From positions 76,705 to 140,704 of the forward strand of contig CAKZLE010000035.1 in the NCBI GenBank assembly GCA_937125225.1: 64,000 bases of DNA, in the 5' to 3' direction. The notes beneath the pieces are model-generated. The model did not search any database and had not been told where the DNA came from. It was given only the letters and a program-made list of their open reading frames with translations. This DNA comes from an uncultured Spirochaetia bacterium. Its GTDB lineage: Bacteria; Spirochaetota; Spirochaetia; CAKZLE01. Of this stretch, positions 3,401-46,077 are shown one piece after another. The first letter of the stretch is position 1, and each line of letters opens with the position of its first letter. The translations under genes and the position numbers were made by a program.

Positions 3401-4322
3401 TTTTGTAGACCTTGTGGTAAATACCGGAAAGAACCTGAATGCAGTCTTTCCAAATCCTGAATTACCGATACTCACTGCAGTTGCTAAAGAGGGTGAACAA
3501 TTGAAAGTACTTGTAAGACATGCACAGAACAAGTTCACTGCAAACGGTGATATAGGGATAAGAGGCGGCGAGATTATATATTTTCAGAAGAACTTCTATA
3601 TTGCCGAAGGAGTGATGAACCTGAACTTTACACAAGATACCATTGACCCTAGGGTATCAGTCATAGCTAAACTCAAAGATTTTGACAGTAATGGGGAGAA
3701 AGTGGATATCATATTATCTGTCGAGGATGATTCAGTATTTGACCTTTCCCCAAGTTTTTCTTCATCTCCATATAAGACGCTTACTGAGATATCACAGATA
3801 CTTGGTAATAATATTATTCCGGATGATATTTCGAGTAATAGTGATATATCTACAGCCCTTGCCGTTGCGACTTTAGCCACTGATGTAATTCAGCAGGTTG
3901 GAATCATTGATATTGACCCTATTGATGATTTAGAGTTATCTATACGTAACGCTTTGAATTTAGATTTGTTCTCTATTAGAACGCAGGTATTACAAAACAT
4001 ATTATTGGATACGATCCCTGGTGATTTCAGCAGTACGATAACCAAGAATCCTATCGCAAGATATTTAGATAATACCACTATATTCTTGGGAAAGTATATT
4101 TCTGATGATATGTTCTTACAAGCAATCATGCAGTTGACAGTTGATGATGACTATAATACAGGTCTATTCATTACTGATGATATAGGATTAGATTTTGAAG
4201 TGAGTTATGAATGGAACAATCCTCTCAATACTCTTACGATTTCTATGGCTCCTGATTCCCTGGCCCTAAAAGACGTTCTTGACAGCGTGAGTATTGGTAT
4301 GTCTTGGAAATTAGCATTGTAA
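417..4322 (+). CDS. tamB: TamB/AsmA-like translocation-and-assembly-module protein (large periplasmic protein with an N-terminal TM anchor)
   Basis: ~1300 aa with an N-terminal hydrophobic helix (IAAIVVMVLILMVFISL), beta-rich D/S/T-rich repeats throughout, and a DUF490-like C-terminus. It sits immediately upstream of bamA, the classic tamB-bamA arrangement. The start could instead be the TTG at 402. Confidence 0.55.
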   Translation: MERLGFEDKQHLLKIAAIVVMVLILMVFISLPLDSYLENRIQAILFDDFVTLSEETGYFIEYEQIEIDLFSAVSLKGLKILHIDRDTPIVTVEELVITYTLRDLLKGPSRKDMYYSLSGMELTLETDDIENIQTALQKLFTQFTPQDDFFTHISGTNISAELNDPNNFELNVELPDILLLLGNKNISGSLIEPVQITFFSNEFSDTMMNSLMAFSYDIAENRGEADITEAMLTYGDMFFEEISIAGELTPEHGGADVSMPGLLSHVTYKLAEKELSTKLLLDEFEIGDIIKVIKVSLPEQLSSADLPDISAEIDVSYDLDSKDLTYDGELSVENFKVGDSIELGATQLSVSGSEKSVIVQEFHTSILDYIIEFKGSFDDYLFFEPTGLLKVSEKESSSTLATIDFQEYNDQLFIDMSSDLLEGGSIKSSAVIDENNIKLVGEFSYENHSYDFDSNLDIGNRVFLTDIENGTALIQVDLTDSPIVFTGSIHNYPLGEIASLEKAQISGSYIDFQQWMVELEDIRIRDVIYNDNEVMLDLSTVITPDSINLRDIVLTENEQPLFGSGSVTYAFDDILKQPMIINMELSNDVERFLVEARYEDQWLSSTIDIVESRLTRLPIPIGSGYAKGYVSINGNLDDFLISGTMEIENGRRLHSSYSGDVKFDVTPDRFKIDSFTGNVGDVMVTDLDFIYDFDEQFIDAIAAIALTMDRRDFQANLILGTSLGEYDPSLSNFRSILRDEQLFFDIAMIDMVLDDEVISDQFVKATYDNKTLHLYDEENLGFDVKYHTDDGSFFAEVRDKYPISFTLEGILKDGEIDAVSNDVELEFSLYQQLGLPFLTFNDGSATGRFNVIGSLGDLEYYGEFFGRSLSASIPYTPEELLIDDIYISLIGKEIIFAPFYIRTKDTVNEATFSLFIDDIIPTGMDLNLMIADEQAVPIDYEFNQFKVKYIGRGSGDISLSGDFKELSIVGDATVSEGMVSILLNAVKKESRNPIAFVDLVVNTGKNLNAVFPNPELPILTAVAKEGEQLKVLVRHAQNKFTANGDIGIRGGEIIYFQKNFYIAEGVMNLNFTQDTIDPRVSVIAKLKDFDSNGEKVDIILSVEDDSVFDLSPSFSSSPYKTLTEISQILGNNIIPDDISSNSDISTALAVATLATDVIQQVGIIDIDPIDDLELSIRNALNLDLFSIRTQVLQNILLDTIPGDFSSTITKNPIARYLDNTTIFLGKYISDDMFLQAIMQLTVDDDYNTGLFITDDIGLDFEVSYEWNNPLNTLTISMAPDSLALKDVLDSVSIGMSWKLAL

Positions 4323-4338
4323 AAATGGAGATTATTTT

Positions 4339-6879
4339 ATGAAACGGGTTTTAAGTGTATTTTTACTACTATTTGTAGCTTTTCAATTTGCCTATGCACA
4401 GGAGGCAGAACCTAATACAGTCGAAGGAAAGGTCATAGAAGCGATCGTCTTCGAAGGTCTCCTTAATGTAGAGGAGAGTGATCTTGATGAGGTCACAAAG
4501 CCTTATATCGGACAGGAATACTCAGAAGAGATTCTCAATAGTCTTCAGGCTGAATTGTATTCTTTACAGTATTTCTCCTATTTTTACGCCTATGGTGATG
4601 TAATAGGGGATAATAAGGATAGACTTAGTATTAAATTCCAGGTCCAGGAACTTCCCTATATAGCTTCTATCACCTTTAGAGATAACAACTATTTCAATGA
4701 TGATGATATTGAGGAGTTGTTAAAGACCAAGGTTGAGTCTTTCTATAGTAATGCAGTTCTCCTAACCGATATAGAGGCTCTAAAGACTGAATATAAAGAC
4801 AAAGGATATATCAATATTGCTATTGAACAGGTCATCGAGACAGATGAAGAAACAAATCTTGTTGAGATTGTATTAGAGATCTCCGAGGGGAAACAGTCAA
4901 AGATCGATTTAATCGAATTCGAAGGTAACACCTTGTATTCGTCCAACTCTCTTAAACGTGTCCTCAATTCAAAAGAACAGTCCCTTTTCAATAAAGGAAA
5001 CTACTCTGAAACTTCGATACAGCAGGATAAGAATGCTATTTTACAATACTATCGGGAGCGTGGTTATATTGAAGCTACCATCATAGATACAAGGATCGAT
5101 ACAAATACTGATGATGAATCAAAAGATCTCATCACATTGACCTTTGTGATCGAAGAGGGGGAACAATGGTTCTTCGGTGGAATCGAAGTTGAAGGTAATG
5201 AAATCTTCAGTGATGATGAGATACAGAAGAATATAAATATCGTAATTGGGGATCCTATCAACATTGTTAGTCTACAGCAGAATATATCAAGCATTGCTGA
5301 CCTTTATTGGAATGAGGGCTATATCTACAATGATATTTCTCCACAGGAAGAGAAGAACGAACGAGATCATACGATCTCTTATACCATCTCTATATCAGAG
5401 AAGCAGCAAGCGTTTATCGAAGATATAATTATCAAGGGTAATGTAAAGACAAAAGATCAAGTTCTGTTCCGAGAACTTGCTATCAAAGTCGGCGATGTAT
5501 TCAGTAAGGAAGATTTTATCGAAAGTGTTCAGAATCTCTATAATACAGGAATCATTGGGAATGTCGATTATAATGTACTATTCGGTTCTGCAGATGGTTT
5601 CATAGTCCTTGAATTTGTTGTTGAAGAGTCAAATAAGGTAGATCTGCAGTTTGGAGCAACCTTTGGAGGGTCTGATGATTTCCCTGTTACCGGTTTCTTA
5701 TCATGGACTGATAAGAACTTTCTAGGGAATGGTCAGGATCTTTCTATCACCACGAACATCGCTTCTTCAACTCAGAGTCTTGATTTCTCTTTCGATGAAG
5801 ATTGGCTTGCGAATCAGCGTTGGAATGGAGGTATATCCTTTGGTCTGAGTCACAATAGCTATGATAGTATTCTACAAGACCTTATTGGAACAAACTTCAC
5901 AGATGATGATTATTATGATGGTATTGCAGTACCTGATCCCTATAACAGTTATGAAGAATATATGGCAGCACTCGATGCTGATGATGAGATAGCTGAAGAG
6001 TATCTTATGGAATATGAACAGTATAAATTGTCGCTTGGGTTTGATACTGGATATACGTTCCATACAGAAGTTGGTAGGATCGGGTTGGGCAGTGGTTTGG
6101 ATTTTGCTCTTACTAAGGTTATTTATGATGATTCACTTTATCGACCATACAATCCTATAATAAGAAATAATCTTGATTCCTGGAACTTTACGAACAAGAT
6201 GAGCCTAGCCTTTAACTGGGATGGTCGAGACCTGATCGAGAATACTACTACAGGTTTCTTATTGAGCGACAGTATCATCTATGCAGGTGGGTTGCTTGGA
6301 GGAACTTCGAGCTACATCAAGAACAGTTTAGGAGCATCTGGGTATGCAACACTATTCAGTTTGAATCAGAATGAATTGAACCCTAAGAATGTAGTATTAT
6401 CACTCAGATCAAATGTCTCACACATCTTTCCTCAATTTTTCAGTTATGGTAGTGGCTTCGGCTGGGAATCACAACCATATGCTACTCAGTCTGAGAAAAT
6501 GTATATCGATGGTATGAATATCGTTAGAGGTATAGATGATCCAATCTATAACTTGGAATTTCTTTGGGATACGACTTTGGATGTCACGGTACCAATTGTC
6601 AAGAATGTTCTATCTGGTGAGATTTATGCTAGTGCAACCGGTTATAAATCAAATGTTGAAGATTCAACAGAACTCAGTATACAGGACTTCTATTTCAGTA
6701 TGGGTGGAGGTGTGAAACTGGCTATTGCAGGATTTCCTCTTGGAATCTATCTGACTAAAGTTCTATCCTTTGATGAGAATAATGATCCTGTATGGCAGGC
6801 TGGTGATATCTTTTCTAATGACAGTAATGATAGTTCCGGATTGAATCTTGTACTTGCTATAACATATAGCCTCTATTAA
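4339..6879 (+). CDS. bamA: Outer membrane protein assembly factor BamA (POTRA repeats plus C-terminal beta-barrel)
   Basis: Signal peptide MKRVLSVFLLLFVAFQFAYAQ, repeated POTRA-like modules (...IEFEGNTLYS..., ...IIIKGNVKTKDQVLFREL...), and a C-terminal Omp85 barrel ending in an aromatic residue (…ITYSLY). Confidence 0.85.
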   Translation: MKRVLSVFLLLFVAFQFAYAQEAEPNTVEGKVIEAIVFEGLLNVEESDLDEVTKPYIGQEYSEEILNSLQAELYSLQYFSYFYAYGDVIGDNKDRLSIKFQVQELPYIASITFRDNNYFNDDDIEELLKTKVESFYSNAVLLTDIEALKTEYKDKGYINIAIEQVIETDEETNLVEIVLEISEGKQSKIDLIEFEGNTLYSSNSLKRVLNSKEQSLFNKGNYSETSIQQDKNAILQYYRERGYIEATIIDTRIDTNTDDESKDLITLTFVIEEGEQWFFGGIEVEGNEIFSDDEIQKNINIVIGDPINIVSLQQNISSIADLYWNEGYIYNDISPQEEKNERDHTISYTISISEKQQAFIEDIIIKGNVKTKDQVLFRELAIKVGDVFSKEDFIESVQNLYNTGIIGNVDYNVLFGSADGFIVLEFVVEESNKVDLQFGATFGGSDDFPVTGFLSWTDKNFLGNGQDLSITTNIASSTQSLDFSFDEDWLANQRWNGGISFGLSHNSYDSILQDLIGTNFTDDDYYDGIAVPDPYNSYEEYMAALDADDEIAEEYLMEYEQYKLSLGFDTGYTFHTEVGRIGLGSGLDFALTKVIYDDSLYRPYNPIIRNNLDSWNFTNKMSLAFNWDGRDLIENTTTGFLLSDSIIYAGGLLGGTSSYIKNSLGASGYATLFSLNQNELNPKNVVLSLRSNVSHIFPQFFSYGSGFGWESQPYATQSEKMYIDGMNIVRGIDDPIYNLEFLWDTTLDVTVPIVKNVLSGEIYASATGYKSNVEDSTELSIQDFYFSMGGGVKLAIAGFPLGIYLTKVLSFDENNDPVWQAGDIFSNDSNDSSGLNLVLAITYSLY

Positions 6880-39764: not shown

Positions 39765-40592
39765 CTATGGTACAATTTTTTTCGATTTCTCTATCATTGT
39801 TTTAGACTCTATTAGATTGCCATCCTGCTCATATAGCAAAGATAGTGTTTTATAGATATTCTTAAGTAAGATAGGATCCGTGATATAGTTAGATAACTCT
39901 ATGAAAGACTGTAACGCTTCATTTGGAAATAGTTCTGTCTTGATAACATAAAGTTCGTATAATTCCTTCTCTGAAACTGCTAGATGAATAAGAAATTCTA
40001 ATTGACCAGCTGCCTCTTTATACATTCCAAGTGCAATATATTTGTTTACGAGAAAATATGCAATTCTTCTAGAGTCTAAACCAGCTTTTTGTAAGTATTC
40101 TTTTGCTATGTAAAGATCTGCTGAATTTGCTGAGGAAATTCCAAGATATACATATAAGTTTGAATTTATAAATCCATTTTCTTCTGCTATAAGAAGATTA
40201 TCTACTGCTCTATCAAAACGTCCTGTATTGAAATATGCAGCGCCTAAGAGGTAATGAATTAAAGGGATAACTTTAGTACTTTCAGGATAGAGTATTTTAA
40301 AAAGTTCTAGACTTTCAATACTGTTCCCGTACTGTTTTAAATTGAAATTACTTATTCCGTAAAGGTATAGGTAAGTCTGTTCAACTCTTTTTTTATCATT
40401 TAATTGATTATAGGAGTTAATAAAACTCTGAAAATCACCTGAATAGAATTCCTTAAAAAATTGCTCTTTCTGTTTTGAATCTTTGAATGTAGAAATAGAA
40501 ACAGCAAGGATAAGTAACACCATGATCGTTGTTATAATCATAATGAGATATGGTATTATCCTTACTGTCTTCTTTGAAAAATCATTATTCAT
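39765..40592 (-). CDS. Membrane-anchored TPR repeat protein
   Basis: Start MNNDFSKK at 40592, then a TM helix (IIPYLIMIITTIMVLLILAVSI) and TPR-like helical repeats. The ORF-track start at 40640 would run into the rnpB gene, so it is rejected. Confidence 0.5.
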   Translation of the reverse strand: MNNDFSKKTVRIIPYLIMIITTIMVLLILAVSISTFKDSKQKEQFFKEFYSGDFQSFINSYNQLNDKKRVEQTYLYLYGISNFNLKQYGNSIESLELFKILYPESTKVIPLIHYLLGAAYFNTGRFDRAVDNLLIAEENGFINSNLYVYLGISSANSADLYIAKEYLQKAGLDSRRIAYFLVNKYIALGMYKEAAGQLEFLIHLAVSEKELYELYVIKTELFPNEALQSFIELSNYITDPILLKNIYKTLSLLYEQDGNLIESKTMIEKSKKIVP

Positions 40593-40599
40593 AAATAAA

Positions 40600-40940
40600 A
40601 AATCCAGGTCTATAAGCCGGGTTCTGTTGTCGACGATCATCTATCTGCATACCTTATTGCTAAGATATTCTAGCGACCTACCCGCAGCATTAAAGCGAAC
40701 AACTATGCTGCTGTTTGATCTTGCTCCTGAAGAGGTTTACCCTGCCCTGTCTGTTACCAGACAGGCGGTGGGCCCTTACCCCACCATTTCACCCTTACCT
40801 GCAAGCAGGCGGTATATTTTCTGTGGCACTTTCTGTAGCTTCAAAAAGAAGCTCCCGGGAGTTACCCGGCATCATGTTCTATGGAGCCCGGACTTTCCTC
40901 TCTATACATAAAGTATAAAGCGATCATCTGACCTAGATTA
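40600..40940 (-). ncRNA. rnpB: RNase P RNA (bacterial type A-like)
   Basis: The minus strand carries the universally conserved P4 5' strand GAGGAAAGTCCGGGCTCCATAG and the P4 3' strand ACAGAACCCGGCTTAT. It also has the CAGGTAAGGGTGAAATGGTGGGGTAAGGGCC module and a P1 pairing of TCTAGGTC (5') with GACCTGGA (3'). The region is a GC-rich island in an AT-rich genome and ends in a U-run. Confidence 0.85.
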
Positions 40941-40950
40941 AATAATAACT

Positions 40951-41748
40951 TTAAAGATCGAAATCATCAAGATCGACGAGATCTGCTAATGCACCCTCTT
41001 CAATATCATCTGCACCAACTGCTGATCCGATAACCTCTTCTTCGATATCTTCGAAGTAAAGAATTCTACTACAGTAGGGACAGAACATGAAATCTTTTCC
41101 TTTTCTTACATCATTAACAAACTGCGCAGGAAGTGTCATATGACAACCAGTACAAACTGTATCATGAATTGGTACAATACCAACTCCTGACTTGTTTTTA
41201 ATGATCCTTTCAAACTTGAATAGAACATCACCATCGATATCTGGAACGATCTCATCTTCTTGTTCTTTTAGAATATCAAGTTCTTTATTTTTCTCGCTGA
41301 GAATAGTTTCCATCTTCTCCTGCTCAACTTTTACCTCTTCTTCCTGAAGAGTCATGAGATCTTCCTGGTCTTCAATCTGAGAAACGAGTTCTTCTTGAAT
41401 GTTCTCTTTATGAAGGATAGTCTTTCTCAACTGTTGTTCTTTCTCTGTAGCATCCTTGATTTCTTTGTCGAGTGCCTCATATTCTCGTTGAGTTGTGATG
41501 AGATCCATCTGTTTTTCATAATTCTCTCGTTCTCTCTCAGCATCATCTAGTCGTATTCTGATGCTTTTGATATCATTTTTAATCAGTTCAAGTTTTTCAT
41601 TCTTTTCAAGATAGTTCTTCTTACCACGATTAAGCAATTCGATTTTTGTGCTTAACGTCTTTGGAATTTCTTTCACTTCATCTTGAACATCATATTTCTT
41701 TGATAAAATGGTCTGTAAGGCCTGCAATTTAATAAATACTTCCTGCAT
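40951..41748 (-). CDS. Coiled-coil protein with C-terminal C4 zinc ribbon (COG1579-like; HP0958-type architecture)
   Basis: Long E/K-rich coiled coil, then CTGCHMTLPAQ...FCPYCSRILY. Confidence 0.5.
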   Translation of the reverse strand: MQEVFIKLQALQTILSKKYDVQDEVKEIPKTLSTKIELLNRGKKNYLEKNEKLELIKNDIKSIRIRLDDAERERENYEKQMDLITTQREYEALDKEIKDATEKEQQLRKTILHKENIQEELVSQIEDQEDLMTLQEEEVKVEQEKMETILSEKNKELDILKEQEDEIVPDIDGDVLFKFERIIKNKSGVGIVPIHDTVCTGCHMTLPAQFVNDVRKGKDFMFCPYCSRILYFEDIEEEVIGSAVGADDIEEGALADLVDLDDFDL

Positions 41749-41767: not shown

Positions 41768-43612
41768 TTATACATAATCCTTTAATCGTCTACTTCTTTT
41801 CGGGTGTCTTAATCTTCTCAAGGCTTTAGCTTCAATTTGCCTAATTCGCTCTCTAGTGACTTCAAAGTATAAACCAACCTCTTCTAAAGTCAATGAATAG
41901 CCATCCTCTAATCCAAACCTCATCTTCAAGACTTCCTGCTCTCTTGGAGGCAGTGTTTTAAGAACATCTTGTAGTTGTTCTTGAAGTAATTTGAAAGCTG
42001 TCTGGGTCGCAGGATTCTCTACCTCTTTATCTTCTATGAAATCGCCGAGTAAAGAATCTTCTTCTTCACCTATTGGAGTCTCAAGAGAGATAGGTTCTCT
42101 TGCAACATTCTTTACTGTTTTGACTCTTTGTGGAGTCCACCCTAACCGTTCAGCAATCTCTTCATCAGTTGGTTCTCTTCCAAAAACTTGCATCAACTGT
42201 CTAGATTCTCTGACGACTTTATTGATCTGTTCTATCATATGTACGGGAACTCGAATAGTCCTAGCCTGATCAGAAATTGAACGGGTTATTGCCTGTCTGA
42301 TCCACCAAGTCGCATATGTTGAGAACTTATATCCTTTACGATATTCGAATTTCTCTACAGCTTTGATCAATCCGATATTTCCTTCTTGAACTAAGTCAAA
42401 GAAATGAAGTCCTCTATTGGTATACTTTTTAGCGATAGAGACCACAAGTCGAAGGTTGGCTTGAATCAAACGATCCTTTGCACTCTTCATCATGACTCGG
42501 CCATGCTCTATTTCTTTTGCATCATTGATGATTTCAGAAATATCATTTTCGAAATCAAATTCAATATTTTTGAGTTTTTTCTCTGTAAGTTGAATCTGTC
42601 TGATCTGTTCTTTTATAACATCAGTCGTCATCTGTAGTTTTTCTTCAAGTGCTTCTCTTTTACTCGGTATAGCAAGGGATCGTCCCATCTGTCTGAGTTC
42701 TCTAACAGAACTGACACCTAATCGTGCTTCTAACTGATCTCTTCTATTCTGGTACTCATATATATCTTTTTCTGATTGTACGAACTTATCGGTAAAATCT
42801 ATTATCTCATCCTGTTGAAGAACGAATTGAGAGAGTTTCTTCATAAGCTTATCTCTCTTCTTTCCAAGATCTTCATCCTGAATAAAACTACCACCTTCAC
42901 TTTGAATCTTTTTTTTCTGTTCAACATAATTCTTAAGTGGGGCATTAACCTCTTTGATCTGATCTTTATAGGCTTGATTGAGTCTTTTTTGTTCTGAGAA
43001 GAAATCAGCCAATTCTTTCTTTGACAGTTCAAGTTCACTCTCATCGATCTTCTGGGCAAGTTTTTGTTGAATATTAGACATACCTGTGATCATGATCCCT
43101 GATTTGAGTATGACACTTCTGATGATATTCTCACCCTCTTCCATCTTCTTTGAAAGCTCAACTTCTTGTTCAGCAGTTAAAAGGCTCTCTTTACCAATCT
43201 CTCTTAGGTAGAGTCTAATAGGATCGTCAATTGCAGCTTCACCATCACTATAGATGAGTTTCTTTGACTTATGAGATGGTTTTTTTACAGGAGCCGCAAT
43301 TATTTCTTCAACAACCTCTTCTGCCTCTACGATTTCTTCTTCATCTTCTATGATCTCAAGATCCTCATCCTCTTCGAATGCTACCTCTGTGCCAGAGTCA
43401 AAGGATCCCTGTACGGCAGGATCTACGGCAGTTTTAGATTTAATGACTTTTACACCATTTTTTTCAAGAAGTTTGACGACTTCATCCGAGTTATCAGAAT
43501 TTGCAATAGAATCTGGTAAGAACTCGTTCATCTCAGCTAAAGTGATCTGTTTCTTTTTCTTACCGAATACTAAGAGTTTCTTAACTAAAGGATCTTGTGA
43601 TAATTCTGGCAT
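41768..43612 (-). CDS. rpoD: RNA polymerase sigma factor RpoD (sigma-70)
   Basis: Regions 1.1, 1.2, 2 (...[14 protein letters not shown]...), 3 and 4 (...[31 protein letters not shown]...). Confidence 0.95.
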
Positions 43613-45381
43613 TAACTATTCCTTATACGTCCAATTTCTTCATCTATAAACTTTTTCTCATATAGAAGATCCTGCAAAATCTTTATATCAGCATGAGCAG
43701 AATTCTCTTCTACCTTTATCTGAGAAATGACAGATTTCCTGTTTATTTCCAGTTTGCTGATCTTATACCTCTTCAATATATCATCAATCACATTATCTAC
43801 ATGGATAAGATACTGATCAGAGCCGTAATTCTCAAGTATAAAAGTTCTTACTTCATCATGTTCAATTCGAAGAATAAGATTCTCGAAACTTGATTCACCC
43901 TCACGAAAAGCCTCTTCAAGTGCAGTATATATATCAATTGCCCTATAATCTTCAAAATCGGCAATCTTAACCTGTCTTCTGACATTAAGAAAATATTCAC
44001 GATTATGAATGATCACCATCATCAGATACAGTTCAATTGATAAAGAACCTGATTGCACACCAATACGCTCACGTGATTGTTGTTGACTATTACGTTTGAC
44101 TTTTTGCCTTGTTAGATCTTGCATAATTGTCTTTTCGTCAACATCAATAATCTCCGCGAGCGTTTTTATTGAACTAGATAATTTTATTTCTGATTGTATT
44201 GCTTCTAAATATGGTCTTACCTCATTAAAGACAGATAATTTTCCGTTCGGCGAAGAAATGTCATGATTTTCTTTCGCCTTGTTAATCATATACGTAAAAC
44301 TATTTATACTCTTTTTTAGAATATTTTTCAACAAGTCAATATCACTATTTTGTAATATCTCAGCAGGATCCTTATCTTCAATTGAAATAACTTCTGTATC
44401 AATGCCTAAGGGTTCAAGAATAGTGATGGTCTTTCTTGTCGCTTGGACTCCAGCATTATCAGAATCAAAAAGTAGTATTCCATTTTCCGCATATCTTTTG
44501 AGTCTTCTCCCCTGTTCAGGTGTGAAGGCCGTACCAAGTGGTGCGACACTATTCATTATTCCTGCTTCATAGAGTGCAAGAACATCAAAATATCCTTCAC
44601 AAACTATGAAGGAGTTCATCTTCTTGATAGCGGGAAGGCTCTGATGGAGGCTAAAGAGCGCTTCTCTCTTGTGATAGATATCAGTTTCAGGAGAGTTTAA
44701 ATATTTTGCATTATTGTTTTTATCTAGGGCTCTTCCACCAAAAGCGATAATATTTCCTGATTGATCTGAGATGGGAAACATGAGCCTATCTCTGAAAATT
44801 GGATAAGTAGGGTTATTCTTTGAAAAGACTCCACATTTCTTAAGGAATTCATCACTGTATTTTTTCTTTTTTAAGAATCGATAAAGCCAATTTGGATCTG
44901 CTGGAGCATAGCCTAGTTGGTAATCATCTATTGTAGTATCCGAAATTTTCCTTTCATGAAGATAAGTAAGAACTTTCTTTCCCTCATCTTTCTCTTTTAA
45001 AATGTAGTGAAAACTTGCGGCAAGTCTTTTATAGAGTTCATACATCGCCTGCTTATCAGATCTCTTTTCCTGTTGTTCTGGAGATTCCTCTTCAAGTGCG
45101 ATCCCTGCTTTCTCAGCAAGTTTCTGTACTGATTCTATAAAAGTTATATGTTCAATTTCCATAAGGAAGTTAAAAATCGATCCACCTTTCCCACAACCGA
45201 AACAATGATAAAAACCTTTATCATCATGAACGGTAAAAGAAGGAGTTTGTTCATCGTGAAAAGGACAGAGACCCCAAAGTTGGCCCCCTTTCGATTTAAG
45301 GGAGATATAATCTGAGATCACATCAGATAATGAGATTTTGTCTTTTATTTGCTCTAATATATAATCAGGAATCCTGGCCAT
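43612..45381 (-). CDS. dnaG: DNA primase DnaG
   Basis: Zinc-binding domain [35 protein letters not shown] domain ...[13 protein letters not shown].... Upstream of rpoD (macromolecular-synthesis operon order). Confidence 0.9.
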
Positions 45382-45387
45382 AACAGT

Positions 45388-45828
45388 TTAATTATAGAAT
45401 ATTTTAGGCTGATTGGCTTTTCTTTTTTCCAACCATTCTTCAATTTCTTCTTTTTTATGTAATTCCCCATGATTAATTCCGGGGCATTCCTCAGATTCTC
45501 GGTCCCAATCTTCTTGAGACTCAACCAATGCTGCCCAGAATGGGTAACTTCGACACTGAATGGGTCTTACCGGATAGATGCTGCAGCCTGAATCTGTTAA
45601 GAATATACAATCATTATTAGGACGCTCGATAATACTGAGCATATAAAAGGTGCCCATTTGGACCTTTTTACAATAAGTCTTAATAAAATTTTCTTGTGAT
45701 AATCCTAAATGTTTATGAATTATTGATATCTCTTTTTCAGAAAGAAAGACATATCCTGGTTCATCTTTGCAGCAGTGAGAACATTGTACACATGAGAATC
45801 TTAATCCATGTTCATAAATATGATTCAA
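45388..45828 (-). CDS. YkgJ-family (CxxCxxCC) putative Fe-S/zinc cluster protein
   Basis: FSCVQCSHCCKD motif, plus ...CIFLTDSGCSIYPVRPIQCRSYP... typical of UPF0153/YkgJ. Confidence 0.6.
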   Translation of the reverse strand: MNHIYEHGLRFSCVQCSHCCKDEPGYVFLSEKEISIIHKHLGLSQENFIKTYCKKVQMGTFYMLSIIERPNNDCIFLTDSGCSIYPVRPIQCRSYPFWAALVESQEDWDRESEECPGINHGELHKKEEIEEWLEKRKANQPKIFYN

Positions 45829-45840
45829 TAGTTGCCTCTC

Positions 45841-45878
45841 AAAGAAAAAAAAAGCCTTTCAACTGAATGAAAGGCTTT
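45841..45878 (-). terminator. Intrinsic terminator downstream of tRNA-Tyr
   Basis: On the minus strand, AAAGCCTTTCATTCAGTTGAAAGGCTTT is followed by nine T residues. Confidence 0.6.
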
Positions 45879-45959
45879 TGGGGAGAGAAGGATTCGAACC
45901 TTCGAAGCTATTGCAACAGATTTACAGTCTGCCCCCTTTGGCCACTCGGGAACCTCCCC
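45879..45959 (-). tRNA. tRNA-Tyr (anticodon GUA), long variable arm, CCA not encoded
   Basis: The minus strand reads GGGGAGGTTCCCGAGTGGCCAAAGGGGGCAGACTGTAAATCTGTTGCAATAGCTTCGAAGGTTCGAATCCTTCTCTCCCCA. It folds as a cloverleaf with a GTA anticodon and resembles the E. coli tRNA-Tyr (recalled from memory, not searched). Confidence 0.9.
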
Positions 45960-46003
45960 AAATACGTTTTTAAACGTAACAAATAACATTAATAATGTCA
46001 ATC

Positions 46004-46077
46004 AGCCACCTGTCAGATTCGAACTGACGACCCCGAGATTACAAGTCACGTGCTCTGGCCAGCTGAGCTAAGGTGGC
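46004..46077 (-). tRNA. tRNA-Thr (anticodon UGU), CCA not encoded
   Basis: The minus strand reads GCCACCTTAGCTCAGCTGGCCAGAGCACGTGACTTGTAATCTCGGGGTCGTCAGTTCGAATCTGACAGGTGGCT. It has a 7-bp acceptor stem, a perfect T stem GTCAG/CTGAC, and the anticodon loop CTTGTAA. Confidence 0.9.

Follow-up and report, generated by a model that had tools for sequence, protein, structure and literature searches.

A stretch of roughly 340 nt on the minus strand of the window, the window being the whole 64,000-nt piece of DNA from an uncultured Spirochaetia bacterium that was analysed here, is overlain by open reading frames on both strands. The questions raised by this locus are whether it holds a gene for RNase P RNA (rnpB) and, if so, which of the overlapping frames are real, where the following gene for a TPR-repeat protein begins, and how an RNA packed between two protein genes is transcribed. 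RNase P RNA, together with the RnpA protein, removes the 5' leaders from tRNA precursors. The initial annotation had placed an RNase P RNA at 40600-40940 and had pointed to the two P4 strands, a P1 closing helix and a P10-12-type module.

Identity and fold of the RNA gene

The entire window was scanned against Rfam 15 at gathering thresholds, and three matches were obtained, namely rnpB and two tRNAs (Table 1). The rnpB match is to RF00010 (RNaseP_bact_a) on the minus strand, with a score of 298.3 bits against a gathering threshold of 100 (E=1.4e-96). It covers positions 1-367 of the 367-position model and is not truncated, and class A alone was retained as the clan CL00002 match at this locus. 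The proposed RNase P RNA is borne out by this covariance search, and the stretch had been rightly picked, its limits moving from 40600-40940 to 40597-40939. The flagged sequence is confirmed as an ordinary, full-length class A bacterial RNase P RNA gene; judged from its sequence, its product is the catalytic subunit of the enzyme. No rnpA gene is present in the window.

Read from the minus strand of 40400-41200, one P4 motif, GAGGAAAGTCCGGGCTCCATAG, begins at 40900 and the other, ACAGAACCCGGCTTAT, occupies 40627-40612, while the P1 helix is formed by AAUCUAGGUC (40939-40930) paired with GACCUGGAUU (40610-40601); the P4 strands, P1 and the P10-12-type module named at the outset are all present in the sequence. 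The class A inventory comprises P1-P3, a P4 pseudoknot core with a bulged U, P5, P7-P11, a very short P12, P13, P14, P15-P17 with a GGU motif, the P6 pseudoknot, and P18 with a GCAA loop. We take the GGU motif at 40680-40682 to be the binding site for the tRNA 3'-CCA, as in E. coli class A RNase P RNA. The very short P12 with its CUUG loop, the U-rich L9 loop and the short P3 fall within the ordinary variation of the lineage. The GC content is 0.49-0.52 within rnpB and drops to 0.26-0.37 on either side, in agreement with the GC-rich island noted initially. At the 3' end, at least four T are found among the six nucleotides after P1 in 68 of the 76 homologues aligned below, against a background T frequency of 0.25.

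Table 1. Positions of rnpB, its structural elements and the neighbouring genes in the window
Feature	Position	Strand	Basis
tRNA-Thr (UGU)	46004-46077	-	Rfam
tRNA-Tyr (GUA)	45878-45960	-	Rfam (match 45879-45959)
146-aa ORF	45388-45828	-	
dnaG	43612-45381	-	
rpoD, primary sigma factor, 614 aa	41768-43612	-	Pfam Sigma70 regions 1.1 to 4
C4 zinc-ribbon / DUF164 / COG1579 protein, 265 aa	40951-41748	-	Pfam Zn_ribbon_9, E=1e-15
Candidate rnpB promoter TTGATG-17-TATTAT over the last Zn-ribbon codons, weak	40942-40970	-	9/12 consensus match
rnpB, class A RNase P RNA, 343 nt	40597-40939	-	RF00010; pairing in 76 homologues
P4 5' strand AAG-U-CCGG, bulged U at 40892, catalytic core	40888-40895	-	Sequence; partner 40614-40620
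P6 pseudoknot 5' strand GAAC	40876-40879	-	Pairs with GUUC 40697-40700
P6 pseudoknot 3' strand GUUC, in P17 loop	40697-40700	-	Alignment
GGU motif, P15/P16 internal loop	40680-40682	-	G258, G259 and U260 invariant, 76/76
AUG in J18/2 (AGAUAGAUGA), A300-U301-G302 of rnpB	40638-40640	-	Invariant in 76/76 copies
P4 3' strand CCGGCUU inside ACAGAACCCGGCUUA	40614-40620	-	Sequence and alignment
U-run UUUUUU at rnpB 3' end, first two U within P1	40597-40602	-	Alignment
Spurious ORF antisense to rnpB, 142 aa, TTG start	40483-40911	+	Mechanical ORF only
Spurious ORF antisense to rnpB, 67 aa, TTG start	40715-40918	+	Mechanical ORF only
TPR-repeat membrane-anchored protein, corrected start, 275 aa	39765-40592	-	Pfam TPR_2, 33.5 bits
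Radical SAM protein (Radical_SAM_N2 + Radical_SAM + DUF2344 fusion), 827 aa	37272-39755	-	Pfam

Since the RF00010 model carries no pseudoknots, and the initial annotation had staked its reading on a P1-P4 fold with the conserved pseudoknot, homologues were gathered for a test of the fold. One genome per species was scanned with the upstream Zn-ribbon protein, which gave 80 loci, all of Spirochaetia type. Nearly all the matches listed by a protein search, the listing of which ends at 120 rows, were likewise from Spirochaetia. Twenty of these were scanned with Rfam, and in 15 an rnpB match of 258-308 bits lies directly 3' of the Zn-ribbon gene; in the other five the sequence stops no more than about 120 nt from the Zn-ribbon protein match, so that all 15 loci with downstream DNA are positive. 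A search for the pair of P4 motifs located rnpB in all 75 untruncated related loci, each time with the Zn-ribbon gene directly upstream.

An alignment of 76 rnpB copies was made with MAFFT, the structure of the window copy was projected onto it with P4 and P6 added as pseudoknots, and the pairs were counted; the 5' ends of P1 in the relatives were placed by a heuristic, or at several loci by Rfam coordinates or a fixed offset. Standard pairs are formed by 94.4% of cells, a figure that none of 500 column shuffles attains (76.3% of cells pair in these), and by only 31-44% when the partner is slid by 1-3 columns. Double-sided changes occur in 78 of the 104 pairs of the structure. Among the 76 sequences, all seven pairs of P4 (helix 4) are 100% paired and six of the seven are invariant, while 97.7% of P6 cells (helix 6) are paired, with compensatory changes in three of the four pairs; the fold of P1-P4 with its conserved pseudoknot thus forms as had been supposed. 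As RF00010 does not encode the P6 pseudoknot, the covariation of P6 is a test independent of the Rfam match. P13, P14, P15-P16 and P18 are likewise backed by the pair counts, with covariation in helices 13-15 and 19-21. Chance is excluded by the E-value of 1.4e-96 together with the covariation. The idea that this copy is a pseudogene was rejected on the pair counts and on an analysis of the frames over the RNA.

In some relatives rnpB carries large insertions: P12 gains as much as about 100 nt, the P17 region is enlarged, and an extra hairpin stands between the 3' strands of P2 and P4. These insertions correspond to alignment columns 195-280, 401-450 and 542-575 (for example in loci L067, L071, L074, L076, L077, L037, L041 and L062) and account for the range of rnpB lengths among the relatives, 328-485 nt. 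The clade to which the window belongs carries a minimal form of the gene.

Reading frames over the RNA and the start of the TPR gene

The three open reading frames that the initial annotation described as lying on the RNA, 40483-40911 and 40715-40918 on the plus strand and 39765-40640 on the minus strand, are all present in the mechanical list. Neither plus-strand frame is called in the public ENA record of the same contig. In the closest relatives, stop codons occur in all three frames antisense to rnpB and the open runs are shorter, at 95-106 codons. Stop-free runs commonly arise over GC-rich RNA genes in AT-rich genomes, and runs antisense to rnpB are long in general, with a median of 109 codons. 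Both plus-strand frames are mechanical artefacts, and their dismissal as spurious was correct.

The minus-strand frame of 39765-40640 would encode 291 aa, and its first 16 codons do overlie rnpB, as had been stated. The ATG at 40640 that opens it is the invariant A300-U301-G302 of the RNA, in J18/2, and the AAGG about 12 nt before this ATG is part of the 3' strand of P18. An in-frame ATG is found 16 codons further in, at 40592. A homology search with the TPR protein gave two matches only, P0001 and P0002, both of 275 aa, with identities of 100% and 61%. In all four members of the clade an ATG lies 8-10 nt past the last pair of P1 and is followed by a short basic segment and a hydrophobic helix; in the window the N-terminus reads MNNDFSKKTVR and then enters a hydrophobic (transmembrane) helix, a pattern kept in L001-L003. 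Since the homologues have 275 aa, the clade conserves the ATG after P1, and the ATG at 40640 is invariant as part of the RNA, the start of the TPR gene is placed at 40592, a well-supported prediction that upholds the re-call first suggested.

It is scarcely credible that the plus-strand frames or the 291-aa TPR form are real coding sequences overlapping rnpB, even though the frames are open at all three places and the 291-aa form, with AAGG before its ATG, is the one called in the ENA record. The ATG and the AAGG are both accounted for as conserved parts of the RNA, and locus L003 has no in-frame start inside rnpB in the 291-aa frame, the clade keeping its start just past P1. Of the 76 loci, only 10 keep the frame that begins at the J18/2 AUG free of stops for more than 100 codons. 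The antisense frames are uncalled and are broken in the closest relatives, in a setting where stop-free runs of such length are common.

The erroneous 291-aa form stands in the public gene call on the same contig (L081, 4609-5484). Two false ORFs are thus removed and one gene start is corrected that is wrong in at least one public call. The invariant J18/2 AUG and the P18 AAGG together look like a recurrent mis-annotation trap for downstream gene starts: in class A rnpB, an AUG that follows the AAGG of P18 can seed 5'-extended calls of any downstream gene.

Gene order and transcription of rnpB

The initial annotation had treated the arrangement at this locus as peculiar, a view that does not hold. 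The order dnaG-rpoD-Zn-ribbon-rnpB-TPR is kept in 75 of 75 related loci whose sequence extends far enough downstream. In all 80 loci the Zn-ribbon gene is preceded by rpoD, and the gene after rnpB encodes a TPR protein of 276-318 aa in all ten loci tested. The legend of Fig. 3 of Pereira et al. 2011 already places the RNase P RNA gene of B. burgdorferi after BB0710-BB0713, and the same paper links rpoD with DUF164 in 12 spirochaete species (PMC3372290). A survey of the NIF3 operon lists COG1579, sigma-70, DnaG and TPR (COG0457) proteins as frequent neighbours, with RNase P unmentioned (PMC8469502). A keyword search of the literature for a link between COG1579/DUF164 and rnpB returned nothing, the link being present in the figure legend of PMC3372290. 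The rpoD-DUF164-rnpB-TPR string is a conserved spirochaetal synteny, published before for B. burgdorferi B31, and the family and fold of rnpB are also known; the gene is not a new kind of element. The present work adds 75 uncultured Spirochaetia loci to a synteny noted earlier only in passing for Borrelia, and this synteny may help to assign a function to the poorly understood DUF164/COG1579 family.

Several further observations were made on the surroundings of the gene. The stop codon of dnaG and the start codon of rpoD overlap by one base at 43612, which suggests translational coupling. The tRNA-Thr(UGU) and tRNA-Tyr(GUA) genes head the same co-directional string as rnpB, about 9 kb long, so that substrates of RNase P and its RNA lie in one gene string. 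The radical-SAM gene starts 9 nt after the TPR stop codon, and 31 of the 80 loci have a homologue of it behind the rnpB/TPR unit. At loci L009-L013, from Sphaerochaetaceae-type MAGs, the radical-SAM gene comes directly after rnpB with no TPR gene between, and a hairpin that looks by eye like a terminator, gaagagcgcttcaataaggcgctcttt, follows rnpB (L009 5161-5230 and similar loci). At locus L053 the open frame of the Zn-ribbon gene (4001-4897) appears to run 61 nt into rnpB (4837-5164; gap -61), which a read-through ORF, a frameshift or a fault in the assembly could explain.

In the window the spacers around rnpB are very short. The Zn-ribbon stop codon ends at 40951 and the RNA begins at 40939, leaving 11 nt rather than the approximately 13 nt first estimated, and 4 nt (40596-40593) separate the last modelled base of the RNA, 40597, from the TPR ATG, so the U-run indeed adjoins that start codon as described. 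Across the loci, P1 lies a median of 13 nt from the Zn-ribbon stop, and the following ORF begins 4-50 nt past rnpB. A terminator scan of the window found no intrinsic terminator, that is, no local GC-rich hairpin with a U-run, on either side of rnpB; the only minus-strand match, 40869-40855, is the P8 hairpin inside the gene. A gap of 11 nt is too small for a terminator, so transcripts of the Zn-ribbon gene must run into rnpB; a gap of 4 nt is likewise too small for a promoter, so the TPR gene must be reached by transcription through rnpB. The TPR start has no Shine-Dalgarno 4-mer, a feature present at 26 of the 43 long ORFs of the window.

A candidate promoter with a 9/12 consensus match is present over the last Zn-ribbon codons (Table 1). 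Its -10 element ends 3 nt before P1, and a start from it would therefore shorten P1 by about 3-5 nt. A match of this quality is at chance level in this AT-rich region, where 22 such sites were found and 15.1 were expected. The candidate is not conserved in the closest relative, L001, and L001-L003 have weak matches and no clear -10 element. The C-terminus of the Zn-ribbon protein is a conserved acidic peptide, DLVDLDDFDL (40954-40983 on the minus strand, and the equivalent region of L001-L008); the conservation of a -35-like TTGATG/TTGACG may reflect the protein, since the hexamer is encoded by the conserved LDDF codons. Over all 76 loci, however, promoter-like matches of at least 9/12 whose -10 ends 4-15 nt before P1 are found in 25%, compared with 3.7% once the dinucleotides of these sequences are shuffled and 3.9% at the junction of rpoD with the Zn-ribbon gene, an enrichment of about 6-fold. 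The shuffles and this comparable gene junction were used as controls in place of coding windows, the composition of which made them unfair. Loci with long spacers have good promoters with the -10 ending at -5, namely TTGGCA-17-TAAAAT at L071 and TTGGCA-17-TACTAT at L074 and L050.

The ends of the equivalent transcript have been mapped in B. burgdorferi (PMC10319736), where the gene order is the same as in the window (Suppl. Data 3). BB_0713 ends at 750789, rnpB occupies 750817-751163 and BB_0714, the TPR gene, starts at 751191 (supplements to PMC10319736). The rnpB start lies 27 nt after the BB_0713 stop, and the mature 5' end at 750817 is a mapped primary transcription start (Suppl. Data 2), with processed 5' ends upstream of it at 750773-750813 (PMC10319736). 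The 3' end at 751163 is supported by about 1.95e6 reads and has an intrinsic-terminator score of 1.10 (threshold 3) and Rho scores of 8.97 and 7.53 (PMC10319736). For the Rho region at 751231, 848,729 reads upstream and 13,460 downstream were recorded without bicyclomycin, and 1,284,880 and 206,882 with it (PMC10319736). In Borrelia, the best-studied relative, rnpB thus has a promoter of its own that fires at the mature 5' end, and the TPR gene is reached by only about 1.6% of transcripts.

By analogy, we infer a Borrelia-like pattern of transcription for the window with moderate confidence; that Borrelia is only distantly related and has longer spacers weighs against the analogy. The RNA would be made mainly from its own sigma-70-type promoter overlapping the last Zn-ribbon codons, with transcription starting at the mature 5' end or no more than a few nucleotides from it, which is the situation in Borrelia and E. 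coli, and transcripts of the Zn-ribbon gene would also unavoidably enter the RNA. The 3' end would be formed at the U-run after P1, by processing or by factor-dependent termination; the conserved U-run may serve in termination or in recognition by a nuclease. A minority of transcripts would then continue into the TPR gene, whose AUG lies 4 nt past the RNA and has no Shine-Dalgarno sequence. Taken as a whole, it is highly probable that the locus is a class A rnpB in an old one-strand spirochaetal gene string, with a probable promoter of its own, a 3' end probably formed at the U-run and probable minor read-through into the TPR gene. The co-transcription of the TPR gene with rnpB that the initial annotation had suggested is supported by the 4-nt spacing and by the Borrelia data.

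The initial annotation had also suggested read-through from the Zn-ribbon gene followed by 5' processing. The read-through must indeed occur across 11 nt, but it need not be the productive route to rnpB, and the step from the short 5' gap to read-through and processing as the source of the RNA is not supported in the form first given, in view of the Borrelia start and the promoter enrichment. In its full form this explanation gives rnpB no promoter of its own: endonucleases would cut the RNA at both of its ends from a long dnaG-rpoD-Zn-ribbon-rnpB-TPR transcript, with the TPR mRNA as the downstream product. We consider this somewhat unlikely. It would fit the spacers of just 11 and 4 nt, the Zn-ribbon stop-rnpB gaps of 15 nt or less in 42 of the 76 loci, the lack of an intrinsic terminator before or after the window's rnpB and the weakness of the promoter matches in the closest relatives, as well as the processed 5' ends upstream of the Borrelia gene and the maturation of the E. 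coli M1 RNA 3' end by RNase E (PMC11251521). Yet in Borrelia, where the genes stand in the same order, a primary start coincides exactly with the 5' end of rnpB, promoter-like sites are enriched at the expected position among the relatives, and the long-spacer loci L071 and L074 have strong promoters. Read-through alone would also hardly suffice for a housekeeping RNA that the cell requires in much larger quantity than a sigma-factor mRNA. The claim of 5' processing is accordingly the weaker one, and transcription from rnpB's own promoter is preferred.

How the 3' end arises bears on a further alternative, in which P1 and the conserved U-run act as a long-range intrinsic terminator, rnpB is a closed unit, and the TPR gene is expressed by terminator leakage only. 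P1 is a stable helix of at least 10 bp, and the six U directly after its 3' strand are conserved in 68 of the 76 homologues. The strands of P1 are about 330 nt apart, however, unlike those of a canonical terminator hairpin, the terminator scan gave no match after rnpB, and the equivalent 3' end in Borrelia scores 1.1 against a threshold of 3 in a region that is strongly Rho-dependent. A terminator of this kind is therefore quite unlikely, and a 3' end formed by processing or factor-dependent termination is retained as the expected course.

Within that course, the formation of the rnpB 3' end might gate the genes downstream, the TPR gene (and the radical-SAM gene) being expressed only from the small share of rnpB transcripts, about 1.6% in Borrelia, that escape termination or processing. 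This is a long shot, suggested by the start codon 4-10 nt past the RNA in the clade and by the lack of a Shine-Dalgarno sequence. If it were true, the level of the membrane-anchored TPR protein would be tied to the synthesis of RNase P RNA across Spirochaetota, and a functional link might then exist between RNase P and the proteins encoded on either side of the RNA gene, the DUF164 Zn-ribbon and TPR proteins.

Comparison with known systems

In the dnaG-rpoD macromolecular synthesis cluster, as in the window, a COG1579/DUF164 gene follows directly on dnaG and rpoD (PMC8469502, PMC3372290). Published COG surveys of this cluster count proteins only, and rnpB is not listed as a member. The window differs from the version of the cluster extended by NIF3 and COG1579 in lacking a NIF3 gene between the Zn-ribbon gene and rpoD.

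Compared with E. coli M1 RNA, the class A archetype, the window RNA matches over its full length and its P4 core is identical to the class consensus; P6, P13, P14, P18 and the GGU motif are all present. Its ends align with those of mature M1 RNA: at the 5' end the GGUCAG/GACCAG block is preceded by 6 nt, and at the 3' end P1 is followed by a short tail. The differences are minor and typical of the lineage, namely a CUUG-capped P12 of only about 4-5 bp, a U-rich L9 in place of a GNRA loop, a short P3 and a U-run tail. The settings of the two genes also differ, E. coli rnpB having its own promoter and terminator whereas the window gene is packed between two protein genes.

A published counterpart is found in a distant relative of the window organism, Borrelia B31, where the ends were mapped by experiment (a primary 5' start and a Rho-dependent 3' region) while the window is known from its sequence alone. 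BB_0714 is likened to the window TPR protein by position and Pfam TPR family only. Gene order and strand are the same in both, running from BB_0712 (rpoD) through BB_0713 (Zn-ribbon) and rnpB (SR0613/BB_R0040) to BB_0714 (TPR). The spacers are 27 nt on each side in Borrelia and 11 and 4 nt here, and the RNA measures about 346 nt there and 343 nt here; in both, the Zn-ribbon gene ends just before the RNA and the TPR gene follows close behind it.
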